A stretch of DNA of 32,000 bases from Candidatus Methylomirabilis oxygeniifera (GCA_000091165.1 FP565575.1:600001-632000); one strand, 5' to 3'; positions 5,172 to 22,692 are shown, counted from the first letter of the stretch. The notes: generated by a model from the letters alone, not told the origin. Numbers and translations: made by a program.

Positions 5172-5249
5172 GGCCGGCCTCGGGACAGGCAACCCTCCCG
5201 CGACCTCCGGACAGAACAGCACGACGCGCCCTTCGCGCATCCTATTACC
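5172..5249 (-). pseudogene. Orphan internal fragment of a DUF523 gene (duplicate of 3528-3605)
   Basis: 78 bp aligning to 3528-3605 with 4 mismatches by my count. Encodes EGRVVLFCPEVAGGLPVPRPAAEI with no start or surrounding gene body. Confidence 0.75.
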
Positions 5250-5311
5250 AACCTCAGCTACTGCCGAACGCCTGGGTTCAGGAACGGCCACCACAACGCG
5301 ACGCCGCGACT

Positions 5312-5665: not shown

Positions 5666-5787
5666 TTTCCATGTGCCGAACAGATATTAGCCGACGGTTC
5701 TCGGACGGACTTTACGATATTGGTGCGTGAAGTATAATACGATATTTGTGACGCATCTCTTGGAACATCCTTGAATCCACCGGGTCC

Positions 5788-5829
5788 GACTGGATTCCGT
5801 GTCAAGCACGGAATGACGGGCCAGAACAG
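5788..5829 (-). repeat. 42-bp hairpin element (ATTCCGTG-loop-CACGGAAT core), inverted copy of 11486-11527
   Basis: Its reverse complement is identical over 42/42 nt to 11486-11527. Confidence 0.85.
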
Positions 5830-5975
5830 AAGACACCTCGCAGCTCGTTGCGTGGAAGTTCATTAAAACGCTGGCACAGATACCAACTATTGGATATTCT
5901 GCTGGATAGACCTGTATGTAGTTGCCATGTTCCGCCAGAGCTCTGATTGGGTATAGCAACGGAGGTGAGAAACCA

Positions 5976-7727: not shown

Positions 7728-8498
7728 ATGGAATTAGGGCTGCGTGGGAAGGTTGTGGTGGTGACCGGTGGAAGCCGGGGGATCGGCAGGGCGATTGCTC
7801 TGGGCTTCGCCGAGGAGGGGTGTAAGCTCAGCATCTGTGGACGAGGTCTGCCGGCACTGGAAGAGGCGACTACGGCGATGAAAGCCTACGGGGTCGAACT
7901 GCTTGCAGTATCCACCGACCTCACCGATCCTCATGGAGCCGAGCGCTTCGTACAGGCGACGCTCGACCGGTATGGCCGGATCGACGTCCTGGTGAACAAC
8001 ATCGGCGGGTCGCGCCGCGGAGAGCTGGAAATCCTCTCAGAAGACGATTGGCGGGAAGCGTACGATCTGAACTTCTTTTCCACGCTGCGGATGGCCAAAC
8101 TGGTCGTACCGGTCATGAAGCGACAGGGCGGTGGGCGGATCATCAACATCGCCTCGATCTGGGGACGAGAGTCGGGAGGGGCGATGACCTACAACGCCTC
8201 CAAGGCGGCGGTGATTAGCCTCTCCAAGTCGCTCGCCAAGGAACTGGCGCCTCACAATATCCTGGTCAACAGCGTCGCGCCCGGTTCGACCCTCTTTCCG
8301 GGCGGCTCGTGGGACAGGCGGCAGCGCGAGAACCCGGCTCAGATCGCTCAGTTTATCAAGGATGAGCTGCCGCTGGGCCGATTCGGCCGCCCCGAGGAGG
8401 TCGCCGCCGTCGTGATCTTCCTGGCATCCCAACAGGCCAGCCTCGTGACCGGCGCATGCGTCACCGTCGACGGCTGTCAGTCGCGGTCGCTCATCTGA
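7728..8498 (+). CDS. Short-chain dehydrogenase/reductase (FabG-like)
   Basis: 256 aa. TGGSRGIG Rossmann motif, NNIG, YNASKAA catalytic motif. RBS AAGGGAGA. Confidence 0.9.
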   Translation: MELGLRGKVVVVTGGSRGIGRAIALGFAEEGCKLSICGRGLPALEEATTAMKAYGVELLAVSTDLTDPHGAERFVQATLDRYGRIDVLVNNIGGSRRGELEILSEDDWREAYDLNFFSTLRMAKLVVPVMKRQGGGRIINIASIWGRESGGAMTYNASKAAVISLSKSLAKELAPHNILVNSVAPGSTLFPGGSWDRRQRENPAQIAQFIKDELPLGRFGRPEEVAAVVIFLASQQASLVTGACVTVDGCQSRSLI

Positions 8499-8815
8499 CC
8501 GCCCGGCGTGGGCGCTGAATCCTGTGCAGGTATATTGAGATTGTCTTGGTCGGTGTTTGTGGGTGTGATAGTGACTCGAAACTGGTTGACAAGTCCCTTG
8601 AAGGGAAAGACAATCCCAGCAGGAACCGACACTCGAATGGCCGTCATATACTGATCAGCGCGCTTATGTCGGTGCGCGATCGGACGACGGCAAGTAACTC
8701 GGGCCGCTTCAAGCAGCGCGGTCTCATATTCGGCGACGCATCGATGGTCAGGGCTGGGGTAGGGTCTGGCGCTGTATCCAGGAACTGATTTCGACGAAGG
8801 ATTGGGAGGCGTATC

Positions 8816-9124
8816 ATGACCCGTGTTCTCGAGAATAAGCGCCAAGCGATAGCTGAAGTCTGCCGGCGTCATGGTGTGGCCCGGCTGGACGCATTCGGCT
8901 CCGCCTTGCGTGATGACTTCAGACCAGGCGAGAGCGATGTGGACCTGCTGGTCGAGTTCTGGCCGATGGCACCATACGCCCGCGTCGACGCCTACTTCGG
9001 CCTGCTCGAAGAACTCAGGGCCTTACTGGGGTCGGAGGTCGACCTCGTCATGGCGGGGGCCGTCAAGAACCCGTACATCGCCCGCGATATCGATCGTACC
9101 AAGCGGATGCTCTATGCCGCATGA
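8816..9124 (+). CDS. Nucleotidyltransferase (MNT-type antitoxin of a HEPN/MNT pair)
   Basis: 102 aa. FGSALRDDFRPGESDVDLLVEF is the minimal-NTase GS...DxD pattern. Overlaps the downstream HEPN start by 11 nt. Confidence 0.85.
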   Translation: MTRVLENKRQAIAEVCRRHGVARLDAFGSALRDDFRPGESDVDLLVEFWPMAPYARVDAYFGLLEELRALLGSEVDLVMAGAVKNPYIARDIDRTKRMLYAA

Positions 9125-9201: not shown

Positions 9202-9269
9202 TGTGCCAATAATAGTGAGACACCTGCCCCCCTGTAAATTAGAGTAGAGGGTAGGGAGGAACACACATC

Positions 9270-9773
9270 ATGAGAACTGGACCGATCACAGCTTCCCAGG
9301 GCAGCGCAGTCGCCCGCCGAGTCCCCGCACGTCCGTGGCCTGGCACCGCACGCCCCGCCGAGCCGCAGCGGGTGGTCCCAGCAGTCCCACCCGATCCCGA
9401 GGTGCCCACAAAGCCGGCACGACGACGGTTCACCGCAGCCGAGAAGCTCCGCATCTTGAGACTCGCCGATGCCTGCACGGTGTCGGGGAGCCTGGGGGCG
9501 CTCTTACGCAAGGAGGGGCTGTACTCGTCGAACCTCACCACCTGGCGCCGACAGCGGGACGCGGGCACCCTGTCCGCCCTCACGCCCCAGAAGCGGGGCC
9601 GCAAACCGTCGATCCGCAGTCCACTCGCCCAGGAGCATGAGCAGCTTCGTCGGGAGAACGAACGGCTGACGCGGCGGCTCCGACAGGCCGAGCTCATCAT
9701 TGATGTTCAAAAAAAAGTTTCGCAGATCCTGGGGATCCCCCTGGCGACCTCCGAGGCAGGAGGCAGCGACTGA
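9270..9773 (+). CDS. IS3-family transposase OrfA (HTH plus leucine-zipper part)
   Basis: 167 aa. RRFTAAEKLRILRLADA...LRRENERLTRRLRQAELIIDVQKK is typical of IS3 OrfA. Confidence 0.85.
   Translation: MRTGPITASQGSAVARRVPARPWPGTARPAEPQRVVPAVPPDPEVPTKPARRRFTAAEKLRILRLADACTVSGSLGALLRKEGLYSSNLTTWRRQRDAGTLSALTPQKRGRKPSIRSPLAQEHEQLRRENERLTRRLRQAELIIDVQKKVSQILGIPLATSEAGGSD
9709..9716 (+). other. Probable -1 programmed ribosomal frameshift site (run of 8 A followed by G)
   Basis: The A-run is near the end of orfA. I checked that the -1 frame is open from 9710 through the orfB ATG at 9773, which would permit an OrfAB fusion as in other IS3 members. Confidence 0.6.
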
Positions 9774-10777
9774 TGGGCGCCGCGCAGACTCTGGCCTCCG
9801 AGGTAGGGATCAAACCGGCCTGCGACGCGTTCGGCACTTCTCGTGCCGGCTTCTACCGCGCCCAGACACGAACGCACGCTCCGATGGTGGAGCCAACGAG
9901 GCGCCCCAGCCCTCCACGGGCGCTGTCCGCCGATGAACGGCAGGGCGTGCTCGACCTGCTGCACGCCGACCGGTTTGCCGACCAGGCGCCCCATGAGGTC
10001 TATGCGACCCTCCTGGACGAAGGCGACTACCGCTGCTCCATCCGCACCATGTACCGACTCCTCAACGACCACACCGAGGTCAAAGAACGCCGGAACCAGT
10101 TGCGCCATCCGGTATATCAGAAACCGGAACTGCTGGCCACGGCCCCGAACCAGGTCTGGTCGTGGGACATTACGAAGCTCCTCAGCCCGGTGACGTGGTC
10201 CTACTTCTACCTCTATGTGATCCTGGACATTTTCAGCCGGTACGTCGTCGGCTGGATGGTCGCCTTGGCGGAATCGGCCGCCTTGGCCGAACGACTCATC
10301 CGTGAGACCTGCGCCAAACAGGGGATCGACAAAGGGCAGCTCACGATCCATGCGGACCGGGGCTCCTCCATGACCTCCAAGCCCGTGGCGTTCCTGTTGG
10401 CCGATCTGGGCGTCACCAAAACCCACAGCCGGCCGCATACGAGTGATGACAACCCGTACTCGGAAAGTCAGTTCAAGACCCTCAAGTACCGACCGGACTT
10501 CCCGGAACGGTTCGGGTGCATCGAGGATGCCCGGGGCTTCTGTCAGGACTTCTTCACCTGGTATAACACCGCGCATCGGCATACGGGCATTGGTCTCCTG
10601 ACACCGGAGGTCCTGCACTACGGCTTGGCGGACGAGGTCCGCGCGGCTCGCGCCGCGATCCTGCAGGCCGCCTATGAAACCCATCCGGAGCGGTTCGTCC
10701 GCAAGGTGCCGGTTCCCCCGGCGCTTCCGGAGGCCGCGTGGATTAACAAACCGAAGCCGATGGATACCGAGCGATGA
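9773..10777 (+). CDS. IS3-family transposase OrfB (DDE/rve integrase core)
   Basis: 334 aa. WSWDITKL, HADRGSSMTS and DNPYSESQFKTLKYRP give the D, D, E context. Confidence 0.9.
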   Translation: MGAAQTLASEVGIKPACDAFGTSRAGFYRAQTRTHAPMVEPTRRPSPPRALSADERQGVLDLLHADRFADQAPHEVYATLLDEGDYRCSIRTMYRLLNDHTEVKERRNQLRHPVYQKPELLATAPNQVWSWDITKLLSPVTWSYFYLYVILDIFSRYVVGWMVALAESAALAERLIRETCAKQGIDKGQLTIHADRGSSMTSKPVAFLLADLGVTKTHSRPHTSDDNPYSESQFKTLKYRPDFPERFGCIEDARGFCQDFFTWYNTAHRHTGIGLLTPEVLHYGLADEVRAARAAILQAAYETHPERFVRKVPVPPALPEAAWINKPKPMDTER

Positions 10778-10825
10778 GGCGCGACACTAAATTCGGACAC
10801 CAGGTGTCTCAAAATCATTGACACA

Positions 10826-11113
10826 TTCCGTCTCTCCGGATATGAAAACAGTCGCCTGGTCCGCTCATCGGTCGAGCGCGAGTTTATCATTATCGGAGAG
10901 GCTGTCGCAGCACTCGCCCGGGTTGCGCCGAAGACCTTCGATGCGATCACGCGAGCACGCAGGATCGTGGACTTCCGTAATCATCTCACCCATGAGTATC
11001 CGACCGTGGACAACGCTCTCGTGTGGGCGATTGTCGAGCATGATGTGCCGGTACTTCGCCGGGAGTGTGCCGTACTCATTCAGCGCGTTGTGCCTGAGGA
11101 CACGCCGAGCTAA
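10826..11113 (+). pseudogene. HEPN (DUF86) toxin gene, 3' part
   Basis: My translation: FRLSGYENSRLVRSSVEREFIIIGEAVAALARV...RRIVDFRNHLTHEYPTVD...VPEDTPS, stop TAA 11111-11113. Carries the R-x4-H HEPN motif (RNHLTH). Confidence 0.75.
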
Positions 11114-11115
11114 CC

Positions 11116-11466
11116 ATCGCCTCGATCTGGGGACGGGAGTCGGGAGGGGCGATGACCTACAACGCCTCCAAGGCGGCGGTGATCAGCCTCTCCAAGTCGC
11201 TCGCCAAGGAACTGGCTCCTCACAATATCCTGGTCAACAGCGTGGCACCCGGCTCGACTCTCTTTCCTGGTGGCTCGTGGGACCGACGACAGCGCGAAAA
11301 CCCGGCTCAGATCGCCCAGTTCATCAAAGACGAACTGCCGCTGGGCCGATTCGGCCGCCCCGAGGAGGTCGCGGCCGCCGTGGTCTTCCTGGCGTCCCAA
11401 CAGGCCAGCCTCGTGACCGGCGCATGCGTCACCGTCGACGGCTGCCAGTCGCGCTCGCTCATCTGA
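11116..11466 (+). pseudogene. Second copy of the SDR gene 3' end (351 bp, no 5' part)
   Basis: Aligns without gaps to 8148-8498. I count 24 mismatches but only 2 amino-acid changes (AAVVIF vs AAAVVF). Starts directly after the HEPN stop. Confidence 0.85.
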
Positions 11467-11485
11467 CCGTTCGCCTGTTCCTCTG

Positions 11486-11527
11486 CTGTTCTGGCCCGTC
11501 ATTCCGTGCTTGACACGGAATCCAGTC
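11486..11527 (+). repeat. 42-bp hairpin element, copy 2 (CTGTTCTGGCCCGTCATTCCGTGCTTGACACGGAATCCAGTC)
   Basis: Perfect reverse-complement match to 5788-5829. Confidence 0.85.
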
Positions 11528-11637
11528 TGGCTTTCTGGATACACGAACTCGCGGCAAGCCGCGAGGAATGAACCCTCTGTAGATTCACACGGTTCGAGAT
11601 TTGTCACCGAGAGGTCAGCGCCTCTATGGTTAGACCA

Positions 11638-11858
11638 ATGTCCTAACCCGAGACGGCAGAGGGGTTCGCAGCCGTCTGGACGCACCCGCGGAATTTTACT
11701 TCGGTCGGCCCTATCAGGATCAGGCTGACCGCTGGGGCGGCCTCTGCCGCTCTAGGCCTTGTTGAAATTCCGTTGACAAGTCTGTGAAATCGCAGGAAAC
11801 TCCAACCTATTGTGAGTATTTTTGTGACTGTGCTATACAGACCAGTATAATCATAGTT
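11638..11858 (+). repeat. R220 repeat, copy 1: long imperfect palindrome followed by a promoter-like 3' part
   Basis: Aligns end to end with 18206-18424, with scattered mismatches, a 3-nt indel and one more divergent 16-nt patch. Contains the stem GAGACGGCAGAGG (11650-11662) / CCTCTGCCGCTC (11741-11752) and an inner GGTCGGCC/GGCTGACC hairpin. Confidence 0.85.
11822..11851 (+). promoter_or_regulatory. Putative sigma70-type promoter (TTGTGA-N18-TATAAT) upstream of the TIR gene
   Basis: TATAAT at 11846-11851 is conserved in the other R220 copy. The -35 is weak and the spacing is 18 nt. Prediction by eye only. Confidence 0.35.
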
Positions 11859-11890
11859 CTGTCGCTCCGTGATGGAAAGGGCAGTCGGAA

Positions 11891-13069
11891 TTGGAAGTGA
11901 GCTTTCCTACAGACGCGGACAAGTTCCTTTTGCGGGAATGCCCATCTTGCGAACAGCGGTTTAAGGTCGTATTCGGGGAGGGGAGCGACGAGCTGATCTC
12001 GTGCTGCCCGTACTGCGGATACAACGAGCGCAACTGTTGGCACGCTCAGCCACAGGTCGAGTACATACAGGCAGTCGCCGCCAGCGTTGTTGTCGCCCCC
12101 GAACTCAAGAAACTGGAACGCCATCTCAAGGGAATGTCGAAGGGCATTCTCAAAATCGACGTCAATTCGAGCATCTCGTCGCCGCCACCGCCGCCTATGG
12201 AGACGGATGAACCGTTCGCCATCCTTCACTTTCCATGCTGCAACGAAACAATCAAGGTTGAACGTCGCGACCACCATTTTTGCGTTATCTGTGGTACGGA
12301 GGTTGACATGGGAATCAGCGACTCGAAGAAAGTGTTCTTGAGCCACAAAGGTATTGACAAGGATTTGGTAATTGACTTCAAGAAATCCTTGAAACTGGTT
12401 GGTTACGACCCGTGGCTAGACGAAGATGCGATGCCCGCGGGGACGTCACTTGAACGCGGGCTCCTTCAAAGTATGCGGGATTCTTGCGGCGTCGTGTTTT
12501 TTGTTACTCCATCGTTCAAAGACGAGGGGTTCCTGGAAACCGAAGTCAATTACGCGATTCAAGAGAAGCGGAAGAAGGGCGACAAATTCGCAATTGTGAC
12601 GCTGCAGTTTTGCGGCGCTGACGGCAACGTCGGGGAAATTCCTGAATTGCTCAAGACCTACGTCTGGAAGAAGCCTAAAACGCCACTTGAGGCGTTCGGG
12701 GAAATTGTTCGCGCGCTGCCGGTCGTGCCGGGAATCGTTGACTGGCGCGAAGGGATCACGGGTGTAGTTACCACTCCGAGGACGAAATCGACAACCACGC
12801 AGCTTTGCGATGAAGCAAAGGCGATTTTGAAGGCTGCAGTGGCCGGTGACGGAAGAATCACACACCTTCGCAACATGGGCGGTGAAAAAATTGGAGCGGG
12901 GGGTCAGTCGATGATACCGGACAATGATTCGCGCACCATTGCTCGTTGGGTTGGCGGCCTCGAAGATCTCCAACGTCGCCGATACGCCAAAGATCTCGGC
13001 CACAAGGGCGAGGTCTTCGAAGTCACCAGGGAAGGCTACGAAGCGGCAGACGAACTTCCAGACGCTTGA
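11891..13069 (+). CDS. Zn-ribbon / TIR domain protein with an unassigned C-terminal domain
   Basis: 392 aa. CPSC...CCPYC and PCC...CVIC cysteine pairs sit at the N-terminus. The TIR-like core spans aa 146-275 (KKVFLSHKG...WLDEDAMPAG...VVFFVTPSFKDEGFLETEVNYA). Start is TTG 11891 or GTG 11897; there is no in-frame ATG. Confidence 0.8.
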   Translation: MEVSFPTDADKFLLRECPSCEQRFKVVFGEGSDELISCCPYCGYNERNCWHAQPQVEYIQAVAASVVVAPELKKLERHLKGMSKGILKIDVNSSISSPPPPPMETDEPFAILHFPCCNETIKVERRDHHFCVICGTEVDMGISDSKKVFLSHKGIDKDLVIDFKKSLKLVGYDPWLDEDAMPAGTSLERGLLQSMRDSCGVVFFVTPSFKDEGFLETEVNYAIQEKRKKGDKFAIVTLQFCGADGNVGEIPELLKTYVWKKPKTPLEAFGEIVRALPVVPGIVDWREGITGVVTTPRTKSTTTQLCDEAKAILKAAVAGDGRITHLRNMGGEKIGAGGQSMIPDNDSRTIARWVGGLEDLQRRRYAKDLGHKGEVFEVTREGYEAADELPDA

Positions 13070-13085
13070 TGGAAAGGGGCACGCG

Positions 13086-13175
13086 ACAAAACTAGGCGAT
13101 CCACCAGAGCCGCGTTCAGGTTGTGCAGTATGGCTAGGCTGTATCGTCGCGGCCTGGTGATCCCGGTCGTTAGGG
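13086..13175 (+). other. attC-like imperfect palindrome S1
   Basis: ACAAAAC (13086-13092), 5-nt spacer, then GATCCACCAGAGCCGCG (13098-13114). That arm pairs with CGCGGCCTGGTGATC (13148-13162) as 15 bp with 2 bulged bases. A 6-nt spacer and GTTAGGG (13169-13175) follow. No T-tract. Confidence 0.4.
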
Positions 13176-13249
13176 GGTATTTTGTCAAGCGCCCCAGGGT
13201 GTTTGCGGGATTCATCTGATAGCTGGGCTCTGGAGAAGTGAAACCATAG

Positions 13250-15076
13250 ATGAGCATTCTGGGACGGTTCCTCAATCGACTGACAGAGAGTGAAGAAGGC
13301 GCTTACCTTGCGCCCCGGGAACGTGCATACGAGCATACGCGCGATGCGCGCACGCTAGAACCCGCCGGAGCAGCCATCGTCCGTTTTGCACCGACCTTCA
13401 AGCTTGAGCGGGAAGCAACGCAGTGGCCTGATGGCTTCTGGAACCACTTCAACTCCGCCAACTCTCACTACAAGCGAGGGCACTATCGCAAAGCCAAAGA
13501 GGCCTACTCATCGGCTCGTTCACTGCTTGCCGGCTATGGGGCCCTGGACACCGCCCTGCTCCGGACGTACAGAAAGCTGTACAGGGGCGCCATAGACAAG
13601 AAGCGTTGGGACGAAGCCTACCAGGAGCTATGCGAGCTATTCGAGACGCTTCCTTCTGGCGTCTCAGACACGGACAGGCGGCAGTTCAAAAAGGTTATGC
13701 AGGTGCTCAAGAAGTCCGATCCGGGCTTCTCGGGGCAACCCATGCCGCTGCAGGAACAGAGGCAAACGGGAGGCGAGAAGCCATCGGCGGAAGTGGAGTC
13801 CGCCTCCGGCAAAGACATCGCGGTGCAGCGAGATGAAACGTGGGAGCGACCCAAAGGCGAAAAGCCGCTCAGATGGCAAGAAAACCAGCTCACCTCAGGG
13901 GGGTTTCTTGCCGTGCACCGGAGGTATGACGAGCAGGCCGGAGGCTACCGCTCCTGCAATATCAGGACATACTCTTCACATGGAGACATCCAATCCGAGA
14001 AAGACTGGCTGCGCAGCTTCTACAGACTGAAGATCAGTAACACCGGAGAGCACCTGATAGGCTATTCTGACGATCTGCAGATGTCACTGTCGACGCTAAG
14101 CGGGGACATACTCGCCGAGCGAAGCGTCGCACGCGTCGCCGACGGCAACAAGTACCACATCCGATGCGTTGATCTATCTGAAGGCGGGATGCACTGCCTC
14201 TTCACATCCGCGACAAGGGCGTACCTTCTCGATCAAATGCTTCGCACGCTCTGTGTCTGGATAATGCCGCCCCCGCCTGGCTACCAGGTTGAGCACGGTG
14301 GCCAGGACGCTGGCCACCAACGTATAGAGAGGGCGTTTGCGACGCTGGAGCTGACAGGCCATCCGACGCAGGAGGAGATCAGAGCGCAGTTCCGGCAGAT
14401 GGTGTTCCGCTACCATCCGGACCGGAACCCTGGGGACACTGCGGCGCAGGAACGCACCAAGGAGATCATCGCAGCATACAAGATGGTGTCAGAGGAAGAC
14501 GTCGCTGCTGCCCTTGAGGGCCTGGGTGACAGAGAGTACTACTACCAGATTCTGCATGAGACGGAGCTGGATATAGGTGACACGGGCTACTCTGTGAAGC
14601 TCAGAATGTCCATGAGTGGTCCCGGCGATTGGATATATGCAACCCACATGACGGCGCGGGCGGAGAGGATCTATCTCGGCTGCTATTCCGGCTTGATCTA
14701 CTGCGTTGATCTTGACGGGAACGTCCTCAAAGTCTACCAGACGGATGCCCCGATCGACGGCATCGTGGAGCGAGGACAACATCTATACATATGGACGCAC
14801 ACCAGCCTGTACGTGTTGGGCCGCGACAAGGTCGTTAGCCACATCGATCTTAGGGGAGGCAGCCTCAAGTGTTTCGCAGAATGGGGGCTTATTGTCAAGA
14901 AAGGATCCTCCCTTGTTCTGTGCTCAGCAGACGGGACTTGGCTTGCGAATGTCCGTTTCCAAAGGGAGGCCCATGAGGTAGTCCCGACCTCAAGCGGTCT
15001 TGTCGCCTACACGACGAAAGAACGGTTTCGCGTCTCGCTGTCGGATGCACCTGCGGCTTCGTCTGCCAGATCGTAG
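13250..15076 (+). CDS. J-domain (DnaJ-like, HPD motif) protein with TPR-like N-terminus and beta-propeller-like repeats
   Basis: 608 aa. J-domain around aa 358-417 (FATLELTGHPTQEEIRAQFRQMVFRYHPDRNPGD...IIAAYKMV), with HPD at nt 14414-14422. It is flanked by beta-strand-rich repeats (IYCVDLDGNVLKVYQ, LYIWTHTSLYVLG). The fold assignment of the flanks is inference. Confidence 0.8.
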   Translation: MSILGRFLNRLTESEEGAYLAPRERAYEHTRDARTLEPAGAAIVRFAPTFKLEREATQWPDGFWNHFNSANSHYKRGHYRKAKEAYSSARSLLAGYGALDTALLRTYRKLYRGAIDKKRWDEAYQELCELFETLPSGVSDTDRRQFKKVMQVLKKSDPGFSGQPMPLQEQRQTGGEKPSAEVESASGKDIAVQRDETWERPKGEKPLRWQENQLTSGGFLAVHRRYDEQAGGYRSCNIRTYSSHGDIQSEKDWLRSFYRLKISNTGEHLIGYSDDLQMSLSTLSGDILAERSVARVADGNKYHIRCVDLSEGGMHCLFTSATRAYLLDQMLRTLCVWIMPPPPGYQVEHGGQDAGHQRIERAFATLELTGHPTQEEIRAQFRQMVFRYHPDRNPGDTAAQERTKEIIAAYKMVSEEDVAAALEGLGDREYYYQILHETELDIGDTGYSVKLRMSMSGPGDWIYATHMTARAERIYLGCYSGLIYCVDLDGNVLKVYQTDAPIDGIVERGQHLYIWTHTSLYVLGRDKVVSHIDLRGGSLKCFAEWGLIVKKGSSLVLCSADGTWLANVRFQREAHEVVPTSSGLVAYTTKERFRVSLSDAPAASSARS

Positions 15077-15078
15077 TC

Positions 15079-15154
15079 AGCCGAACACCCCCTAACCGGC
15101 GCTTGCTGCCAGACAGCGCTATGCGCTGCAGCAGAAGCGCCAATCGTTCGGCTT
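15079..15154 (+). other. attC-like imperfect palindrome S2
   Basis: AGCCGAAC (15079-15086) pairs with GTTCGGCT (15147-15154). Inner stem GGCGCTTGCTGC (15098-15109) / GCAGCAGAAGCGCC (15128-15141) has a 2-nt bulge. Also carries ACCCCCTAAC (15087-15096). Starts 3 nt after the stop codon. Confidence 0.45.
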
Positions 15155-15190
15155 GTTCGAGAACTATCAACAGAGTCGGGAGGGAACAGC

Positions 15191-16396
15191 ATGGGACTCC
15201 GTTTTCGAAGGTCAGTAAAGCTCGCTCCCGGTGTCCGAATGAACTTCAGCGGCAGTGGCGTAAGTTGGACGCTTGGCCCTAGGGGCGCGTCCGTCGGTAT
15301 CGGGAAGCGAGGGACGTATTTCAACACTGGTATTCCCGGAACGGGATTTTACGCCAGGGAGCGTATGGCGGGTTCCCGTGCAGGCAACCGGGCACGTGCA
15401 TCATCCTACTCAAACATATCCGTCTCTGTTGGAGTAGCAGATGATGGAACAGTGTATTTCCAGGACGCAGAAGGAAAGCCGCTCGCAGAACATTTGATCA
15501 ATACAGCAAAAAAGCAACAAGGTGACGCAATACGAGATCTTATTCAACAGAAATGTGATGAGATAAATGCACAAATCGAAGCGCTTGGGGAAATTCACGT
15601 CGATACTCCGAACCCCAATGTAAAGCTCCAATATCAACCACAGGAGTTTCCAGAATCTCCGCCCACAAAACCGGGTCCAAAAAAACCTGGGCTAATGGGC
15701 ATGTTCTTCAAGTCCGGACGAGAAAGAATAGAAAGAGAAAACCAAGCGAGAGAGCGTCAATTCGAGGAGGACCTTGAAAAATGGCGAGCGGCTAAATACC
15801 AGTTCGATGAAGCCGAGGAACATCGTAAGGATGTGATCGAACGAGGCATCTACACCAATGTGGAGATGATGGAAAACTTCTTGGAAGAGAACTTACAGAG
15901 CATTGTTTGGCCGCGTGAGACAATTTTATCAACAGAGATTCTTGATAACGGAAAAAGGGTGTTCGTCGATGTCGATCTCCCGGAGTTAGAAGGTATGCCG
16001 AGCAAAACAGCTTCGGCCCCCCAGCGAGGCTACAAGCTATCCGTAAAGGAAATGTCAGCCACACAGATTCAACGACTGTACATGCGTCATGTACACGGAA
16101 TCGGATTCAGAATTATAGGGGAAACCTTTGGTGCTTTACCCAACGCACAAGAAGTGGTGCTCTCCGCATATTCGCAACGTCCAGATCGAACAACTGGCCA
16201 TGTAACGGATGAGTATCTTTATTCGGTGCGAGTAACCAGGGCTTCATGGTCTCGCATAAATTTTGACAATCTGCAGAACTTGGATGTTGTAGATGCTCTT
16301 ACGCAGTTTGACTTGAAGAGAAACATGACAAAGACGGGGGCCTTCAAACCCATCGAACCATTCACCCCGAATGCACAGAAAATCGAACAGGCCTAA
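15191..16396 (+). CDS. DUF4236 domain protein
   Basis: 401 aa. The N-terminus MGLRFRRSVKLAPGVRMNFSGSGVSWTLGPRGASVGIGKRGTYFNTGIPGTGFY is the DUF4236 signature. A charged coiled-coil-like middle and an unassigned C-terminal domain follow. Confidence 0.8.
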   Translation: MGLRFRRSVKLAPGVRMNFSGSGVSWTLGPRGASVGIGKRGTYFNTGIPGTGFYARERMAGSRAGNRARASSYSNISVSVGVADDGTVYFQDAEGKPLAEHLINTAKKQQGDAIRDLIQQKCDEINAQIEALGEIHVDTPNPNVKLQYQPQEFPESPPTKPGPKKPGLMGMFFKSGRERIERENQARERQFEEDLEKWRAAKYQFDEAEEHRKDVIERGIYTNVEMMENFLEENLQSIVWPRETILSTEILDNGKRVFVDVDLPELEGMPSKTASAPQRGYKLSVKEMSATQIQRLYMRHVHGIGFRIIGETFGALPNAQEVVLSAYSQRPDRTTGHVTDEYLYSVRVTRASWSRINFDNLQNLDVVDALTQFDLKRNMTKTGAFKPIEPFTPNAQKIEQA

Positions 16397-16468
16397 CGAG
16401 ATACTCCAACAGAAGGCGCTGTCGGCGCTCCGCGCCGCCAGGGCCGCGGCTGAGCTTCGTCGTTGGGT
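16391..16468 (+). other. attC-like imperfect palindrome S3
   Basis: GCCTAAC (16391-16397) overlaps the TAA stop. TCCAAC (16405-16410) pairs with GTTGGG (16462-16467) and GAAG with CTTC, with bulges. GC-rich centre contains a GGCGC-TCC-GCGCC hairpin. Confidence 0.45.
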
Positions 16469-16505
16469 TACCTGCGCCAATGTCAGTTGGTCGGGTTGAT
16501 ACTAC

Positions 16506-17192
16506 ATGGACTCTCGCTACATTGCTGCAGTTAGTATGGCGTTCGTAATAGCCATAGGTTTCCTCAGGACGCTCACCGCCTATAGAGGGTTGAAGAAGCG
16601 CAGGGACTTTGTATCTGAGTTCTCTGACAAGTTCGTGGAATTTGCCAATAATCCAGATTTCGACGGCAAGCTGTATTATTGGCTGACTCACAACTCGGTT
16701 GCCATTCAATCGGAACTTGGTCCCTTGGGTGTTGCATCCTACAAACCGCCGGCAATTGATTACGTGATACACAATTACCAGATGATCGTCAATCTTCTGC
16801 CAGAACTGAGAAGAAAGAAGACTGAGAATCGTTTGTTTCGCGATGGGGAAATCCACCGCGAATATGCCACAATGTGCCTGGATATCTTGGTCAGGTATCT
16901 GGGTGTAATCGATAGATGGCTACAAGAGGCGAGAGATGAGCTTCGAAACCCGTTTATCTGGCTTGGCCAAGGTGTTCAATCCATTCTGCTTTTGCCCGCC
17001 TATGTCCTGCACTGGTTTGGCTTACTTGGTGCATCTGCTCTGGGGACACTGACAAGAAACATCCTTGTCAAAAGCATTTCGTTCATTGTAGCTGTCGTGG
17101 GTCTTTTGAGTAGCTTGGTTACACTCCTCGTTGGATGGGAGGAGACGGCAAGAATAATTGGGCCTCTATGGCGCGACGCCTTTGGCCCATAA
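16506..17192 (+). CDS. Multi-pass membrane protein, no family recognised
   Basis: 228 aa. Hydrophobic segments YIAAVSMAFVIAIGFL, SILLLPAYVLHWFGLLGASALG and ISFIVAVVGLLSSLVTLLVGW. Same strand as the three upstream genes. Confidence 0.6.
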   Translation: MDSRYIAAVSMAFVIAIGFLRTLTAYRGLKKRRDFVSEFSDKFVEFANNPDFDGKLYYWLTHNSVAIQSELGPLGVASYKPPAIDYVIHNYQMIVNLLPELRRKKTENRLFRDGEIHREYATMCLDILVRYLGVIDRWLQEARDELRNPFIWLGQGVQSILLLPAYVLHWFGLLGASALGTLTRNILVKSISFIVAVVGLLSSLVTLLVGWEETARIIGPLWRDAFGP

Positions 17193-17201
17193 GTCATGGC
17201 A

Positions 17202-17266
17202 GCCCAACATCACGTGCATCCGACCGCTTCGCGCTATGTGCTCGCGGCTTATGCGCTGCGTTCGCT
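17202..17266 (+). other. attC-like imperfect palindrome S4
   Basis: GCCCAAC (17202-17208), 5-nt spacer, then GTGCATCCGAC (17214-17224). That arm pairs with GCTTATGCGC (17247-17256). A 3-nt spacer and GTTCGCT (17260-17266) follow. Centre is CCGCTTCGCG...CGCGG. Confidence 0.45.
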
Positions 17267-17450
17267 GATTTCGGGGACACCATGCTGTATGCTTCACTTC
17301 GGGATTGAGTGGGAATCGGTATGGTATCCTAATATCCTGGGTCGGAAGTTCGGCGAAGAAATAGGCGCCGCATGTGGTGTCACTCCCGCGAAGCTTGTCC
17401 CCGCGGGCTTTAGGCGGGGAGCGGGAATCCAGAACTTCTCTTACTCGCTG
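17249..17450 (+). repeat. R200 repeat, copy 1 (structured, apparently non-coding)
   Basis: Aligns with 19072-19281. Contains the imperfect inverted repeat GGACACCATGCTG / CGGTATGGTATCC and a GTCAyTCCCGCG...GGGAATCC double hairpin. Confidence 0.85.
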
Positions 17451-17632
17451 GATTCCGGCTCGCGCCCGCTACGCGGCCCCCGACCTGATCGGGGGCGGAA
17501 TGACGTCGGAATATCTGCAACGAATTTCAGAAATGGCTCTTCCGGATTGAGTGTGGGTAAAGATCCAAACCTCCGCAATGAAAGTAGATCGCGGTCTTGA
17601 AGTGCTCGACGTTGCGGCGTCAAGACCTCGCC

Positions 17633-17732
17633 GGTCGCCACCGTCGTGATCTTTCTGGCATCCCAACAGGCCAGCCTCGTGACCGGCGCATGCGTCACCG
17701 TCGACGGCTGTCAGCCGCGTTCGCTCATCTGA
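17633..17732 (+). pseudogene. Third copy of the SDR gene 3' end (100 bp)
   Basis: Aligns to 8399-8498 with 4 mismatches by my count and ends at the same TGA. Preceded by the hairpin GGTCTTGA (17593-17600) / TCAAGACC (17620-17627). Confidence 0.8.
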
Positions 17733-17814
17733 CGCCCGGGCCACGCTTGACAGGGAAGACGTTTATCTATACAAATCTCCGCCTGGAAGGCGAACAAACG
17801 ACAGAGGGTGCAGT

Positions 17815-18027
17815 ATGAAAAAAATCGTTGCTGAACCGTATCGCGATATCGATTTCTCCCGTGCCAAGCGAGGCGCAGTCATCAAGCCGGAGCCTGGCAA
17901 GACCAAGATTTCTATCCGGCTCGACAATGCCATCCTCGACTATTTTCGCTCACTGGCTGACGAGGCGGGTGGCGGGAGTTATCAGACACTGATCAACAAC
18001 GCCCTGTCCGCGTATATCCAGCAGTAA
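17815..18027 (+). CDS. BrnA-like (DUF4415/CopG-like) antitoxin, orphan
   Basis: 70 aa. KISIRLDNAILDYFRSLADEAGGGSYQTLINNALSAYI matches the BrnA pattern. No BrnT-like ORF lies upstream. Confidence 0.7.
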   Translation: MKKIVAEPYRDIDFSRAKRGAVIKPEPGKTKISIRLDNAILDYFRSLADEAGGGSYQTLINNALSAYIQQ

Positions 18028-18205
18028 TCGGTCCTGGAGGCGGTTCGACGGGTTGTCAGGGAGGAACTCGTTCTCCCGAAAGCGGGGCGTGATTTAACTC
18101 GACGGTCGACAGGACGCCGCGCGAGCGCGACGTAAGCCAGGTAACGCACCGGGCACTTCGTTTCACTGCCGACAACGCCCTCGTCACCTGTTCCGACTCC
18201 CTCCA

Positions 18206-18424
18206 TTGTCCTAAACCGAGACGGCAGAGGGGTTCGCAGCCTTGGACGCACCCGCGGAATCTTACGTTGGTCGGCCCTATTAGGATTAGGCCGACCGCTG
18301 TGGCGGCCTTTGCCGCTATAGGCCTTGTTGAAATTCCGTTGACAAGCCTGTGAAATCGCAGGAAACTCCAACGTATTGTGAGTAGCCTTGAGACTATACG
18401 ATACAGACCAGTATAATCATAGTT
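18206..18424 (+). repeat. R220 repeat, copy 2
   Basis: See 11638-11858. The inner hairpin is perfect here (GGTCGGCC/GGCCGACC). Confidence 0.85.
18388..18417 (+). promoter_or_regulatory. Putative sigma70-type promoter (TTGAGA-N18-TATAAT) upstream of the antitoxin/ParE pair
   Basis: Same position within R220 as 11822-11851. By eye only. Confidence 0.35.
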
Positions 18425-18478
18425 AGCTATCAAGAAGAGCAACTTGCTGACTTGGTCAAAGGAGCGTATCATCAGGCT

Positions 18479-18700
18479 ATGAGTACGCCAACCATCGACA
18501 TTGAGAAGCTCTCCTCCGAGGAACGCCTTCGCCTTATTGAGGACCTGTGGGAGAGCCTTCGCACGAGACCGGACGCGGTCCCGCTGACCCGCGCGCAGCA
18601 GGACGAACTCGATCGCCGTCTTGATGAACTCGACCGGGGCGAAACCGAAACGGTCCCTTGGGAAGAGGTCAAGCGACGGCTCCGTGATCGGCCCGAGTGA
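18479..18700 (+). CDS. Addiction-module antitoxin (small acidic helical type paired with ParE/RelE toxins)
   Basis: MSTPTIDIEKLSSEERLRLIEDLWESL...LDRRLDELDRGE. The ORF is open from TTG 18452 but I prefer ATG 18479. Its stop overlaps the toxin GTG start (GTGA). Confidence 0.75.
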   Translation: MSTPTIDIEKLSSEERLRLIEDLWESLRTRPDAVPLTRAQQDELDRRLDELDRGETETVPWEEVKRRLRDRPE

Positions 18701-18996
18701 CTCGATCCGGGTTTCGGCCAGCAGCCTCGGCCGATGTCCAGGCCGCCTACGAGTGGTACGAATCGCAACGTCCGGGCCTCGGCAACGAGTTCATCACTGC
18801 CGTGGATACCGCCGTCGCATCTATTCTTGCGTTCCCAAAGGCTTACGCCGTGGTTCATCGTGGTGCCCGTCGCGTCTTGCTCGAACGCTTTCCATATGGC
18901 CTCTACTACCGTATCGACGGTGCGAGGATTGTTGTCGTCGCATGCATGCACGCGGCGCGCGATCCAAGGCGGTGGCGTTCGCGCCTTGATGGTTAA
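18697..18996 (+). CDS. RelE/ParE-family type II toxin
   Basis: 99 aa. AASADVQAAYEWYESQRPGLGNEF...RVLLERFPYGLYYRIDGARIVVVACMHAARDP is a typical ParE-like pattern. Confidence 0.8.
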   Translation: MTRSGFRPAASADVQAAYEWYESQRPGLGNEFITAVDTAVASILAFPKAYAVVHRGARRVLLERFPYGLYYRIDGARIVVVACMHAARDPRRWRSRLDG

Positions 18997-19089
18997 CACG
19001 CGCGTCAACCCGCCGGTCCGTCCGGCTGCGCCGGTTACGTCTCCATGGAGCGAGTGCGGGCGGCCCTCGGGTTACGCGCCCCGTTCGCT
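18991..19089 (+). other. attC-like imperfect palindrome S5
   Basis: GGTTAAC (18991-18997) overlaps the TAA stop. GCGCGTCAACC (19000-19010) pairs with GGTTACGCGC (19070-19079) as 10 bp with one bulged C. GTTCGCT lies at 19083-19089. Internal CTCCATGGAG palindrome. Confidence 0.4.
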
Positions 19090-19281
19090 GATTTCGGGGA
19101 CACCATGCTGTATGCTTCACTTCGGGGTTGAGTGGGAATCGGTATGGTATCCTCATGTCCTAGGTCGAAAGTTCGGCGAAGAAATAGACGCCGCATGTGA
19201 TGTCATTCCCGCGACACTTGTCCCTGCAGGCTTTAAGCGGGGAGGGGGAATCCGGAACTCCTCTTACTCTCTTACTCGCTG
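19072..19281 (+). repeat. R200 repeat, copy 2
   Basis: See 17249-17450. Carries a tandem duplication of CTCTTACT near its 3' end. Confidence 0.85.
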
Positions 19282-20199: not shown

Positions 20200-22692
20200 C
20201 TAGCGAACGGGCTGGATGTTCCAGATCTCGCGGGCGTATTCGGCGATGGCGCGGTCGCTGGAGAATTTGCCGATACGGGCAACGTTGAAGATCGCCTTGG
20301 ATGCCCAGCCCACCGGGTCTTTGAAGGCCTGAGTAACCCGGTTCTGAGTGTCGATATACGATTCCAGATCGGCCAGATGCAGGTAAGGATCCCCGCGATC
20401 CAGTACCTGTTCATTGATCCAGCGGAACAGGCCAGGCTGGTTCGGACAGAACAGATTGGATCCGAATGCGTCCATGAGACGTCGTATGTGGGGATTACGA
20501 TGATAATAGTCTCGAGGATGATAGGACCCTCGCTCCCGTATCTGCCTGACCGCGTCGACCTGCAATCCGAAGAGAAAGATATTCTCCTCGCCCACCTCTT
20601 GCATGATCTCGATATTGGCCCCATCATAGGTGCCGACGATGACGGCGCCATTCATCGCGAACTTCATGCTGCCGGTCCCTGAGGCCTCCGTGCCGGCCAT
20701 TGAGATCTGCTGGTTGACATCCGCAGCCGGAACGATCTGTTCCGCCAGGGAGACGCGGTAGTCGGGAAGAAAGACCACCGTGATCAGCCCCTTCACCCGG
20801 GGATCGTTATTGATCACCTGGCCCACACTGGTGACCAATTTAATGATCTGCTTCGCCGTCCAATATCCCGGCGCCGCTTTACCGGCAAAGATGTACACGC
20901 GAGGCACAGGCGGTTCCTGCCCGTCTTGAATGATGCACAGATACTGGTGGACGATCTGCATGATATTGAGCAGTTGCCGTTTGTACTCGTGAATCCGTTT
21001 GACGTGCACATCGAACAACGCATCCGGACTGACGACGACCCGATCGGCGTCGTAGATGAGTCGTGCCAGTCGCGCCTTATTCACCCGCCTCATCGCGATA
21101 AACGCCTGTCGGAAATCCGCATCCTGAGTATACGGTTCCAGCGCTCGCAGCTTCTCAAGGTCGGTGATCCATCCGTTGCCGATGGTGTTGCTGATGAGAT
21201 CGGACAACAGCGGATTGGCTTGAAGCAGCCAGCGTCGCGGTGTCACGCCGTTCGTTTTGGTGCTGAATTTGTCCGGCCACAGTTGAGAGAAATCAGGCGC
21301 CAAATGGGTTCTCACCAGTTGAGTGTGGAGCGTCGATACGCCGTTGACGGCATGGCTGCCGACAAGCGCGAGATTGACCATGCGCACGTGCTTCTGCGGC
21401 CCCTCCTCAATCAGGGACATGCGTCGCAATCGCTCGTGGTCGCGCGGCCACATGGAGGCCACCTGCGCCAGGAAGCGGCGGTTGATCTCGTAAATGATCT
21501 GGAGATGTCGCGGCAGGACGGCCTCGAGCAGCGAGACCGGCCATTTCTCCAGCGCTTCCGGCATCAGGGTATGGTTGGTATACGATAACGTCGCCTGCGT
21601 CATCTCCCAGGCGGTCTCCCAGGGCAGGGCATGTTCGTCAACCAGCATCCGCATTAATTCCGCAACGGCCAGGGCCGGATGGGTGTCGTTGAGCTGAATG
21701 GCGACCTTGGAGGCGAACTGGTCAAACGTGTCATGACTCTTGCTATACCGGCGGACAATATCCCGGAGGGCGCATGCCACGAGGAGGTATTCCTGGAGCA
21801 GTCGCAGTTCCCGACCCGCTTCGATCGAGTCGGCGGGGTAGAGGACCTTCGAGATGGTCTCCGAGGCGATCTGCTGCTCAACCGCCTTCAAATAGTCCCC
21901 CTCATTGAAGATCTGCATATCGAATTCCTCGGAGGATCGTGCCGAGTACAAACGCAGCACATTGACCGTAGTCCCGCCGTGCCCGACAATCGGCATATCG
22001 TGCGGGACACCGATAATGATCTTCCAATCCATCCACATGGGATTGTACGCGCCGGTGCGATCAATGCCATGTTCGACGCGACCGTATACTGGTACGATAC
22101 AGGCCTCATCGGGGCGCTCGATCTGCCAGGGGTTGCCGCGGGCCATCCAGTTGTCCGGTTTTTCTCTCTGATACCCACTGTCAATGGCCTGCTTGAACAG
22201 GCCATACTCATAGTTAATACCGTATCCGTATCCCGGCATACCCATCGTGGCGAGCGAGTCCAGAAAACAGGCCGCCAGGCGGCCGAGGCCGCCATTGCCC
22301 AGCGCGGCTTCAGATTCGCCTTCCAGCACCTCATCGAGATCGACGCCCATCGTCCGGAGCGCCTCCCGGCAAGGATCGAGCATCTCCAGATTACTCAGGT
22401 TATTTCTCAAGGACTGTCCGAGGAGAAACTCCATGGAGAGATAATGCAGGCGCTTAGGATCGAGCTGTTGATATCGGTCCTCGGTGTCCAGCATCCGGTC
22501 GACGAGGGCGTCTCGCACCGCGAACGCCACGGCCATAAACAGCTCGCGGTCGGAACAGCGCTCCCATTTGTTTCCCAATGAATACCGGGCATGATGGCGG
22601 ATTGCGTCCTGGAAGGCGGATACCGTGAGGGCCACATGACGACGCGTTCCGGAGTCGGACCCCGGATCCTGCTCAAGTCTCCTGATCGACAT
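20200..22692 (-). CDS. glgP: Glycogen/alpha-glucan phosphorylase
   Basis: 830 aa. LGNGGLGRLAACFLDS, the PLP-lysine context EASGTGSMKFAMNGA and TNHT motifs. Confidence 0.95.
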   Translation of the reverse strand: MSIRRLEQDPGSDSGTRRHVALTVSAFQDAIRHHARYSLGNKWERCSDRELFMAVAFAVRDALVDRMLDTEDRYQQLDPKRLHYLSMEFLLGQSLRNNLSNLEMLDPCREALRTMGVDLDEVLEGESEAALGNGGLGRLAACFLDSLATMGMPGYGYGINYEYGLFKQAIDSGYQREKPDNWMARGNPWQIERPDEACIVPVYGRVEHGIDRTGAYNPMWMDWKIIIGVPHDMPIVGHGGTTVNVLRLYSARSSEEFDMQIFNEGDYLKAVEQQIASETISKVLYPADSIEAGRELRLLQEYLLVACALRDIVRRYSKSHDTFDQFASKVAIQLNDTHPALAVAELMRMLVDEHALPWETAWEMTQATLSYTNHTLMPEALEKWPVSLLEAVLPRHLQIIYEINRRFLAQVASMWPRDHERLRRMSLIEEGPQKHVRMVNLALVGSHAVNGVSTLHTQLVRTHLAPDFSQLWPDKFSTKTNGVTPRRWLLQANPLLSDLISNTIGNGWITDLEKLRALEPYTQDADFRQAFIAMRRVNKARLARLIYDADRVVVSPDALFDVHVKRIHEYKRQLLNIMQIVHQYLCIIQDGQEPPVPRVYIFAGKAAPGYWTAKQIIKLVTSVGQVINNDPRVKGLITVVFLPDYRVSLAEQIVPAADVNQQISMAGTEASGTGSMKFAMNGAVIVGTYDGANIEIMQEVGEENIFLFGLQVDAVRQIRERGSYHPRDYYHRNPHIRRLMDAFGSNLFCPNQPGLFRWINEQVLDRGDPYLHLADLESYIDTQNRVTQAFKDPVGWASKAIFNVARIGKFSSDRAIAEYAREIWNIQPVR

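Follow-up and report, generated by a model that had tools for sequence, protein, structure and literature searches.

Why do genes between 11.9 and 19.1 kb of the window, the 32-kb stretch of the Candidatus Methylomirabilis oxyfera genome analysed here, end in imperfect palindromes bounded by AAC and GTT? The sequence-only reading had proposed five integron attC sites, S1 to S5, and all five were found where it had placed them, on the + strand and each beginning 0–17 nt past a stop codon. S1 (13086–13175, +) lies 17 nt past the TIR gene stop at 13069, S2 (15080–15152, +), a strong hairpin, 4 nt past the J-domain gene stop at 15076, and S4 (17202–17266, +; R'' GCCCAAC, R' GTTCGCT) 10 nt past a stop at 17192. 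The other two had been said to overlap TAA stops, as was seen at 16394–16396 for the GCCTAAC box of S3 (16391–16468, +; R' GTTGGGT) and at 18994–18996 for the GGTTAAC box of S5 (18991–19089, +). AAC and GTT terminate all five elements, which at 65–99 nt have their inverted core boxes within the 50–150 nt range, and successive sites are separated by gaps of 0.7–1.9 kb. Several R boxes, such as GTTCGCT and ACAAAAC, do deviate from the consensus RYYYAAC/GTTRRRY, a caveat raised from the start. S2 contains two candidate R'' boxes: GCCGAAC (15081–15087) pairs in place with the R' box GTTCGGC, and CCCTAAC (15090–15096) pairs with the 5' end of its own cassette.

The internal geometry of the sites was compared with that of 14 genuine attC sites from class 1 integrons. 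These share a layout of R'' (7 nt), 5 nt, 3 bp, an extra C or G, about 6 bp and an extra A, followed on the return side by 3 bp, 6 nt and R'. S1 (ACAAAAC-TAGGC-GAT[C]CACCAG[A]GCCGCG...CGCGGCCTGGTGATC-CCGGTC-GTTAGGG) and S5 (GGTTAAC-ACGCG-CGT[C]AACCC...GGGTTACG-CGCCCC-GTTCGCT) have exactly this architecture, with 8/8 pairs and the extra C in a strict geometry test; S1, like aadA1, has another extra base as well, an A that follows 6 bp later. The test picks up most real attC sites, and S1 and S5 were its sole matches in the window (64 kb of strand), compared to 3 matches per 2.49 Mb of control strand. S2 passed a relaxed geometry with 7/8 pairs; its bulge is at the canonical distance from CCCTAAC, yet its 3' spacer is 8 nt. 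The L boxes of S3 and S4 are weak, and the weak stem of S4 has probably decayed. The extra C and A lie on the top-strand 5' arm, a position that would agree with recognition of the bottom strand. By folding energy alone, S2 was the sole exceptional hairpin (z –5.0 and –4.2); S1, S3 and S5 ranged from –0.5 to –1.8 and S4 reached +1.2. Covariation was assessed across 15 sites: 84.8% of cells were paired versus 23–40% with slid partners, and 8 of the 11 L''/L' pairs changed on both sides.

The sites were also scored with two small surrogate covariance models. R1 was built from the 14 class 1 sites only, and R2 from 10 attC sites of other Methylomirabilis/NC10 contigs, with no window sequence. An attC covariance model was the check that had been asked for, and the model matches coincided with the stated coordinates. 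With R1, whose E-values, like those of R2, are rough, S1 ranked first in the window (18.6 bits, E 0.0099), and S3 (12.0 bits, E 0.51), S5 (8.7 bits, E 3.7) and S2 (7.4 bits, E 7.6) were among the 11 window matches at E ≤ 10; R1 gave no match at S4. With R2, S1 scored 25.7 bits (E 2e-4), S3 21.6 bits (E 0.0025), S4 17.9 bits (E 0.02), S5 17.6 bits (E 0.025) and S2 11.5 bits (E 0.83), taking window ranks 1, 2, 3, 4 and 6 in that order; unrelated control DNA (96 kb) reached 15.6 bits at best. Both S2 scores are within noise, and taken alone the site is weak by model score. On other NC10 contigs R1 found 10 attC sites at 17–37 bits. Its top match in 1.28 Mb of other-genome loci (21.7 bits) was in locus L006 of Methylomirabilis sp. 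bin48, at the hairpin behind the ORF that comes first after the repeat R220 described below. This hairpin is followed by a group II intron, which is oriented like the ORF.

Cassette boundaries could be assigned for each gene between the sites. Cassette 1 (11857–13169, +) encodes a TIR-domain protein (ORF 11891/11897–13069; Pfam TIR_2; PADLOC PDC-M14A and TIR models), and its last base is the G of the S1 R' box; it opens with GTTCTGTCGC, which agrees with its own R'' in reverse complement at 9/10 positions. Cassette 2 (13170–15146, +) encodes a J-domain/beta-propeller-like protein (ORF 13250–15076; Pfam DnaJ) and starts with GTTAGGGGGT, a 10/10 match with ACCCCCTAAC; the exact inverted repeat said to bracket this gene was indeed present, with GTTAGGGGGT at 13169 and ACCCCCTAAC at 15087. 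Cassette 3 (15147–16462, +; 8/10, or 10/12) encodes a DUF4236 protein (Pfam; ORF 15191–16396). Cassette 4 (16463–17260, +; 8/10) encodes a predicted membrane protein (ORF 16506–17192) with no family in Pfam or PADLOC, and the bracketing of this gene by GTTGGG (16462) and CCCAAC (17203) likewise proved to be an exact inverted match. Cassette 5 (18423–19083, +; 8/10, or 10/12) contains an antitoxin (Unstab_antitox, 18479–18700) and a ParE toxin (18697–18996), both identified by Pfam. Each window cassette thus begins after the G of G/TT with bases that complement the R'' box of its own attC site, at 9, 10, 8, 8 and 8 of 10 positions. With GTT/AAC fixed, the chance of at least 8/10 is 0.018, of at least 9 is 0.0021 and of 10 is 6.5e-5. 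Geometry, model matches and these values all place the pattern above chance. The corresponding complementarity was 12/12 in both L006 and L097, two of the related loci. Cassettes 1 to 4 form array 1 and cassette 5 forms array 2. Identical-protein look-ups for the J-domain protein, ParE and BrnA matched M. oxyfera assemblies only, with the context unchanged throughout, so these look-ups give no sign of recent movement of these cassettes.

Both arrays share an insertion point, the G/TT at which the 220-bp repeat R220 ends, and a conserved right flank, R200. R220 copy 1 (11635–11856, +) contains a promoter-like TTGTGA-18-TATAAT at 11822–11851, with the crossover between G 11856 and TT 11857–11858; copy 2 (18203–18422, +) contains TTGAGA-18-TATAAT at 18388–18417, with the crossover between G 18422 and TT. 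A promoter scan of 11.4–19.6 kb placed its best promoter-like matches in R220, just before the crossover. The five R220 copies, located in the window and on three other contigs, stay near-identical as far as CATAGTT (...TATAATCATAG/TT) and diverge beyond it into different cassettes. Because different cassettes are joined at its terminal G/TT in the window and in relatives, we regard this conserved leader as attI-like; the repeated use of one junction suggests that it may be a true attI to which an integrase binds. A similar but longer palindrome had been described in about the first 125 nt of both R220 copies. This segment folds weakly, is missed by both R1 and R2, and its left arm is not kept in L006 or in a further related locus, L111; we rejected it as an attC site. 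R200 copy 1 (17261–17449, +) starts at the TT of G/TTCGCT, and a search for an R'' box of its own found none; copy 2 spans 19084–19272 (+). As predicted, both copies start at the 3' edge of a site, their identity beginning exactly at CGTTCGCT. Unrelated REP-like hairpins occur at 5788–5833 and 11482–11527, and R200 also contains such structure in its 3' half.

The comparative signature to look for had been named as presence/absence differences that break at G/TT, and it was observed, the R220 copies diverging there into different cassettes. The same R220 G/TT is followed by an AbiJ-like cassette in L006, by AbiTii in L111 and by a coiled-coil cassette in L097, each with a high-scoring attC site, and the first cassette is a defence-type gene in four lineages. 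An empty site was found in L007, L103, L110, L112, L118 and L119, and in several relatives the SDR gene runs straight into glgP. A cassette with a 117-aa ORF, situated elsewhere in the window, was met again in two further genomes, in other array contexts and preceded by different attC sites, its homology beginning from exactly G/TT. In a GC-rich genome such hairpins might instead be ordinary terminators of transcription or intergenic palindromes of the REP type, with AAC/GTT ends by coincidence, and an ORF preceding every site, the very stable S2 hairpin, the unrelated REP-like hairpins of this genome and the L006 intron (ordinary group IIC introns sit so at terminators) would fit; this reading is strongly disfavoured and very improbable, however, as the sites have no T-tracts, mostly fold no better than shuffled sequence, exactly reproduce class 1 spacer lengths and extrahelical bases and are detected by class 1-trained models, and as neither a gene 5' flank complementary to its own 3' hairpin nor G/TT homology breakpoints are expected of terminators. 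The claim that the sites lack T-tracts and are not intrinsic terminators also agrees with a terminator scan, whose matches were no commoner than in shuffled sequence and overlapped the sites only at a small sub-hairpin, 13153–13174.

No integrase had been seen in the window, and none was found there by Pfam (30 longest ORFs chosen, among which there was no tyrosine recombinase) or by tblastn with IntI1. The search for an intI gene or pseudogene was negative in the 32-kb window, L006, L097, L111 and every other NC10 locus fetched. Of a complete integron, with intI beside attI and Pc, the locus thus offers candidate attI and promoter elements in R220, with no intI.

The arrays are part of a larger structure. 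The entire 8.5–20.2 kb region forms an insertion between the convergent SDR and glgP genes, made up of three tandem blocks with a copy of the SDR 3' end at the head of each. Copy B (11115–11475, +; 93% identical to 8147–8501) marks the left edge of the array 1 block, and copy C (17633–17741, +; 95% identical to the native copy) that of the block with BrnA and array 2. The block repeats most likely reflect single-crossover homologous insertion of related locus alleles. An 84-bp duplication flanks a toxin-antitoxin islet at 3.5–5.2 kb. A separate second array lies on the – strand (5263–5775) and consists of leader-2 (5775→5681, last bases ...GTCGGCTAATATCTG/TT), then the 117-aa-ORF cassette with its attC site (5357→5263; R2 17.5 bits). 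Conserved leader-2 sequences also occur three times in L103, twice in L106, and in L112, with different cassettes after each.

This layout raises the alternative that the blocks are islets integrated at the SDR 3' end by a classical site-specific integrase or a homologous single crossover, with the SDR repeats as attachment scars and the hairpins having no role in mobility. Three SDR 3'-end copies, 92–95% identical, delimit the three blocks, the entire 8.5–20.2 kb is missing from several relatives, and the duplication around the toxin-antitoxin islet is comparable. However, there is no integrase in any block, and the window, L097, L006 and L111 differ in the first cassette behind the same R220. 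Islet integration would account for how the blocks are ordered. It leaves unexplained the attC architecture, the complementarity seen gene by gene at the boundaries, and the joining of different cassettes to R220 at one G/TT. We consider it improbable as a full account, and SDR-end insertion is best treated as an additional, second process acting on the arrays.

Taken together, the architecture, model scores, covariation, boundary complementarity and G/TT breakpoints in relatives support the initial identification of the hairpins as integron attC sites, and we conclude with considerable confidence that two arrays of gene cassettes of the integron type, neither with an integrase close by, lie within 11.6–19.3 kb. 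Each cassette consists of a single ORF or toxin-antitoxin pair and the attC site behind it. In the mechanism we propose from established integron biology, the bottom strand of attC would fold so that R''/R' and L''/L' pair, leaving one or two bases extrahelical. A recombinase, presumably an IntI-type tyrosine recombinase located away from the arrays, would cleave between G and TT at sites that may be active at present, and the cassette would be excised as a circle or inserted at a double-stranded attI-like site. R220 would provide that site, together with a putative outward promoter whose –10 box lies 5 nt upstream of the crossover. This predicted promoter would read outward to the crossover, so that the first cassette would be transcribed.

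Alternatively, the cassettes may be real and R220 and leader-2 favoured secondary, attG-type genomic targets (GWT) that lie by resident promoters, used by a transient or foreign integrase, with the arrays now fossils. Genomic attG insertion and promoter-adjacent expression have been reported, and an origin of small CALINs (defined below) in this way proposed (Loot et al., bioRxiv 10.1101/2022.09.11.507474); both junctions here are just past –10-like boxes, TATAATCATAG/TT and GCTAATATCTG/TT, and intI was not found in the window or related loci. Against this, at least four R220 and seven leader-2 contexts independently show use of one and the same nucleotide, and the leaders are repeated, conserved modules of 100–220 bp, which resemble a dedicated site more than a chance hotspot. 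We regard the attG explanation as possible, if doubtful. Keeping to integron-type arrays, we tentatively suggest that Methylomirabilis genomes may carry a dispersed, 'split' integron. Its leader modules, R220 and the unrelated leader-2, multicopy and with no integrase beside them, might each combine an outward promoter with a fixed G/TT insertion point, and might be loaded with lineage-specific defence and toxin-antitoxin cassettes. If true, this split form would imply either a trans-acting integrase serving many attI-like sites or a new class of integrase-independent platform.

Among known systems, the CALIN (cluster of attC sites lacking an integron-integrase) is defined by a minimum of two attC sites no more than 4 kb apart, with no such integrase in the vicinity, and 83% of CALINs stay below six sites (Cury et al. 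2016, PMC4889954). By this definition the M. oxyfera locus is a CALIN, a known kind of element found here in the phylum NC10: its attC sites are spaced by less than 4 kb and co-oriented with the ORFs, with no intI nearby, the array is small, and the cassettes are unrelated to antibiotic resistance. A full-text literature search found no described integron or CALIN in NC10/Methylomirabilota. Unlike in a CALIN, each array starts at a conserved, promoter-bearing leader with a reused G/TT end, and this leader is duplicated in the genome and conserved in related species. With sedentary chromosomal integrons the arrays share a chromosomal location, toxin-antitoxin and anti-phage defence cargo, and canonical R/L boxes with extrahelical bases; they differ in having no adjacent intI, in being short (1 and 4 cassettes), and in attC sites that vary in sequence and length (65–99 nt) within an array. 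Large chromosomal integrons typically carry near-identical repeats. The cargo recalls the description, in PMC12614218, of sedentary chromosomal integrons as biobanks of defence cassettes. Compared to class 1 attC sites (aadA1, aacA4, cmlA5, dfrA12 and others), S1 and S5 have the same spacing and extra C, whereas there are deviations in the R boxes (GTTCGCT and ACAAAAC, for example), the class 1 model gives modest window scores of 7–19 bits, and S1–S5 lack the GCCGAC motif that many class 1 sites, and several NC10 sites, contain. As in attG insertion, which draws on a very broad landscape of sites (bioRxiv 10.1101/2022.09.11.507474), cassettes lie outside a complete integron, G/TT fits the GWT core and the window cassettes are beside a promoter predicted to be able to express them. 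Unlike in attG insertion, many different cassettes, across species, share a single junction within a leader that is conserved and repeated.

The five plus-strand hairpins (S1, 13086–13175; S2, 15080–15152; S3, 16391–16468; S4, 17202–17266; S5, 18991–19089) that the sequence-only reading had proposed as integron attC sites are correctly read as attC sites in a cassette array, as shown by their geometry, their covariance-model scores and the complementarity at the cassette boundaries. We reproduced all five sites, along with their spacing from the stop codons and the inverted repeats quoted for them. We took our reference from class 1 integrons on plasmids, in which the 5' arm of attC consists of R'' (7 nt ending in AAC), a 5-nt spacer, 3 bp, an extra C or G, ~6 bp and usually an extra A, followed by a variable stem, 3 bp, a 6-nt spacer and R' (GTT....). 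When both strands of the window were scanned strictly for this geometry, with 8/8 L-box pairs, two places were returned, S1 and S5, each with the extra C; the same scan gave 3 matches in 2.49 Mb of control strand and recovered most real class 1 attC sites. S1 resembles the aadA1 attC site in carrying a second extra base, A, 6 bp past the C. A relaxed-geometry scan was dropped as too unspecific (~17 matches per 64 kb in controls). By folding energy, S2 was the sole exceptional hairpin (z about –5), with S1, S3 and S5 ordinary and S4 folding worse than shuffled sequence. With Rfam, neither the gathering threshold nor a cut-off of E = 10 gave a family, except for a single snoRNA match attributed to chance; none fell at S1–S5.

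Covariance models ranked the same hairpins. The first, R1, derived from 14 class 1 attC sites and a hand-written R/L structure, was run on the window with filters off. S1 was its top match (18.6 bits, E = 0.0099), and S3 (12.0 bits), S5 (8.7 bits) and S2 (7.4 bits) were among the 11 matches, at the positions originally proposed. When 1.28 Mb of loci taken from other genomes was searched, the best R1 match (21.7 bits) fell at 3893–3962 of a Methylomirabilis sp. bin48 contig (L006), a hairpin that follows the first ORF 3' of R220, the 220-bp leader repeated in the window. Further NC10 contigs yielded attC sites scoring 17–37 bits, each 3' of an ORF and in the same orientation. A second model, R2, made from ten of these NC10 sites with window sequence excluded, placed S1 (25.7 bits), S3 (21.6), S4 (17.9), S5 (17.6), a minus-strand site at 5263–5357 (17.5) and S2 (11.5) at ranks 1–6, against a control maximum of 15.6 bits in 96 kb of unrelated genomes. 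Over 15 sites, 84.8% of cells were paired, compared to 23–40% with the partners slid, and change on both sides was seen in 8 of the 11 L''/L' pairs. The weakest of the five are S2 and S4. S2 contains two neighbouring R''-like boxes (15081–15096): GCCGAAC pairs in place, 8/8, with GTTCGGCT further downstream, and the second, CCCTAAC, pairs 10/10 with the start of its own cassette. Several NC10 attC sites share GTTCGGC as their R' box.

Integron crossover takes place between G and TT of R'; a cassette consequently starts with bases that complement the R'' box of its own attC site. This complementarity was present in every window cassette: TIR (9/10), J-domain (10/10), DUF4236 (8/10), membrane protein (8/10) and ParDE (8/10). 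With GTT/AAC fixed, the chance of at least 8 matches is 0.018, of at least 9 is 0.0021 and of 10 is 6.5e-5. The first cassettes of L006 and of another contig, L097, start with bases complementary to their own R'' at 12/12 positions. No PADLOC model matched the J-domain, DUF4236 or membrane-protein cassettes, and identical-protein look-ups for the J-domain protein, ParE and BrnA returned no context other than that of the window.

The array lies in accessory DNA between two stretches of housekeeping genes, 1–8.5 kb (including gcvP, thiD, nfi and an SDR gene) and 20.2–32 kb (including glgP, a two-component system and a 2-oxoacid dehydrogenase), where the SDR gene (7728–8498) and glgP (20200–22692) converge. 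In several Methylomirabilis relatives glgP directly follows the SDR gene, and 8.5–20.2 kb is therefore an insertion; one relative has HicAB alone between the two genes. The accessory DNA begins with an MNT/HEPN pair, interrupted by an IS3-family element, and a repeat of the SDR 3' end (360 bp) that precedes R220; it continues with the TIR, J-domain, DUF4236 and membrane-protein genes and R200 (the repeat taken as the right flank), and ends with a shorter repeat of the SDR 3' end (109 bp), BrnA, R220, an antitoxin/ParE pair, R200 and HicAB. The SDR 3' end is present in triplicate (8147–8507, 11115–11475 and 17633–17741; 92–95% identity), which delimits three tandem accessory blocks. The two copies of R220 (11635–11856 and 18203–18422) are 90% identical to each other, as are those of R200 (17261–17449 and 19084–19272). 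These repeated copies suggest that the blocks are diverged alleles of one locus added in tandem, for which single-crossover homologous insertion would be the simplest route.

Several smaller features were also seen. Some SDR alleles contain GTTCGCT, the heptamer of the S4 and S5 R' boxes, within their codons CGT TCG CT. An R''-like AGCTAAC at 11107–11113, directly followed by the SDR 3' fragment, contains the HEPN stop codon and may represent an attC site truncated when blocks were joined. The IS3-family element (9216–10811) interrupts HEPN; it has HTH_Tnp_1 and rve ORFs and TGAGACACCTG/CAGGTGTCTCA as terminal inverted repeats, and contigs of other assemblies end at it. Part of the 2-thiouracil desulfurase gene (84 bp) occurs twice (3525–3608 and 5159–5242, 93% identity), bracketing a toxin-antitoxin islet (DUF433, RelB/YafQ), a duplication of the same kind as at the SDR gene. 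REP-like palindromes of two types, ATTCCGTG...CACGGAAT and CCCGC...CCCCGC...GCGGGG..GCGGG, occur as inverted or dispersed copies at 5788–5833, 11482–11527, in the 3' half of R200 (17380–17435) and at 8867–8923 of the M. limnetica contig (L103); M. limnetica has the R200 palindrome near thiD too.

The five copies of R220 in the window and three other contigs were near-identical up to ...TATAATCATAG/TT and unrelated beyond. R220 is followed by an AbiJ-like cassette in L006, by an AbiTii cassette and further cassettes in L111, and by a coiled-coil protein cassette and then a GmrSD cassette in L097. The first cassette was of defence type (TIR with a PDC-M14A-like N-terminus, PDC-S32/AbiJ-like or AbiTii) in three of the four lineages (window 11897–13069, L006 2975–3880, L111 1133–2056, L097 275–775). 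Of all promoter-like matches in the region, the best are those within R220, where the –10 box stands 5 nt ahead of the G/TT junction; both R200 copies begin at G/TTCGCT behind two different attC sites. Since the R220 junction is reused, a promoter-like site is found there and R200 lacks an attC of its own, we read R220 as a putative attI-like insertion point that also carries a promoter, and take R200 for the probable original right flank. The idea that R200 is itself a cassette with an attC was rejected, since a search for an R'' complementary to TTCGCTGATTTC gave none. The resemblance to attC that had been seen in the palindrome of the left part of R220 did not hold up: it is not an attC site, as it folds weakly, matches neither R1 nor R2, and has other sequence in place of its left arm in L006 and L111. 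No uninterrupted R220/R200 junction was present among the loci fetched. Viral contigs gave no match to R220 and only chance matches to leader-2, the leader of a second array, and a metagenome scan with an R220 24-mer found one 1.2-kb contig, without integrase.

This second array occupies the minus strand upstream of thiD (5263–5775), behind its own conserved leader ending ...GTCGGCTAATATCTG/TT. Leader-2 occurs in three copies in M. limnetica, in two in an NC10 assembly (L106) and on another contig (L112), with different cassettes each time. A cassette with a 117-aa ORF is common to the window, L106 and L112 at different array positions, standing in the latter two behind attC sites of other cassettes (~97% identity to both copies, judged by eye on the alignment). 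Its homology starts exactly at G/TT, which supplies the presence/absence polymorphism with a G/TT breakpoint that the sequence-only reading had sought.

That reading had also seen no integrase, and our searches agreed: among the 30 longest ORFs selected in the window, Pfam detected no tyrosine recombinase/integrase, and IntI1 as a tblastn query gave no match in the window or any NC10 locus fetched. The literature searched yielded no description of integrons in Methylomirabilis or NC10. Integron-type cassettes with canonical attC architecture are now placed in NC10/Methylomirabilota, nitrite-dependent methane oxidisers, and the variable SDR-glgP and thiD-upstream hotspots, whose cargo comprises defence (TIR, AbiJ-like, AbiTii, GmrSD) and toxin-antitoxin genes, are explained as loaded one cassette at a time. 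The integrase-less leaders, conserved, putatively promoter-bearing and reused to the nucleotide, offer a testable case for how integrase-less arrays form and are expressed.

In L006, the R' box of the attC that belongs to the first cassette is interrupted by a group II intron at 3956–~4750 (Rfam group-II-D1D4-3, 131 bits); the intron has no large plus-strand ORF and shares the orientation of the cassette ORF, in which it differs from the group IIC-attC introns of PMC3001079. One paper lists an M. oxyfera intron of the group IIC-attC lineage, outside any cassette array. The element in the window is a CALIN by the published definition (PMC4889954). R220 and leader-2 may be genuine attI sites on which an integrase encoded elsewhere would act, or preferred targets of attG-type genomic insertion (bioRxiv 10.1101/2022.09.11.507474). 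The kind of element is known; what is new is its host lineage, together with the repeated leaders that lack an integrase.
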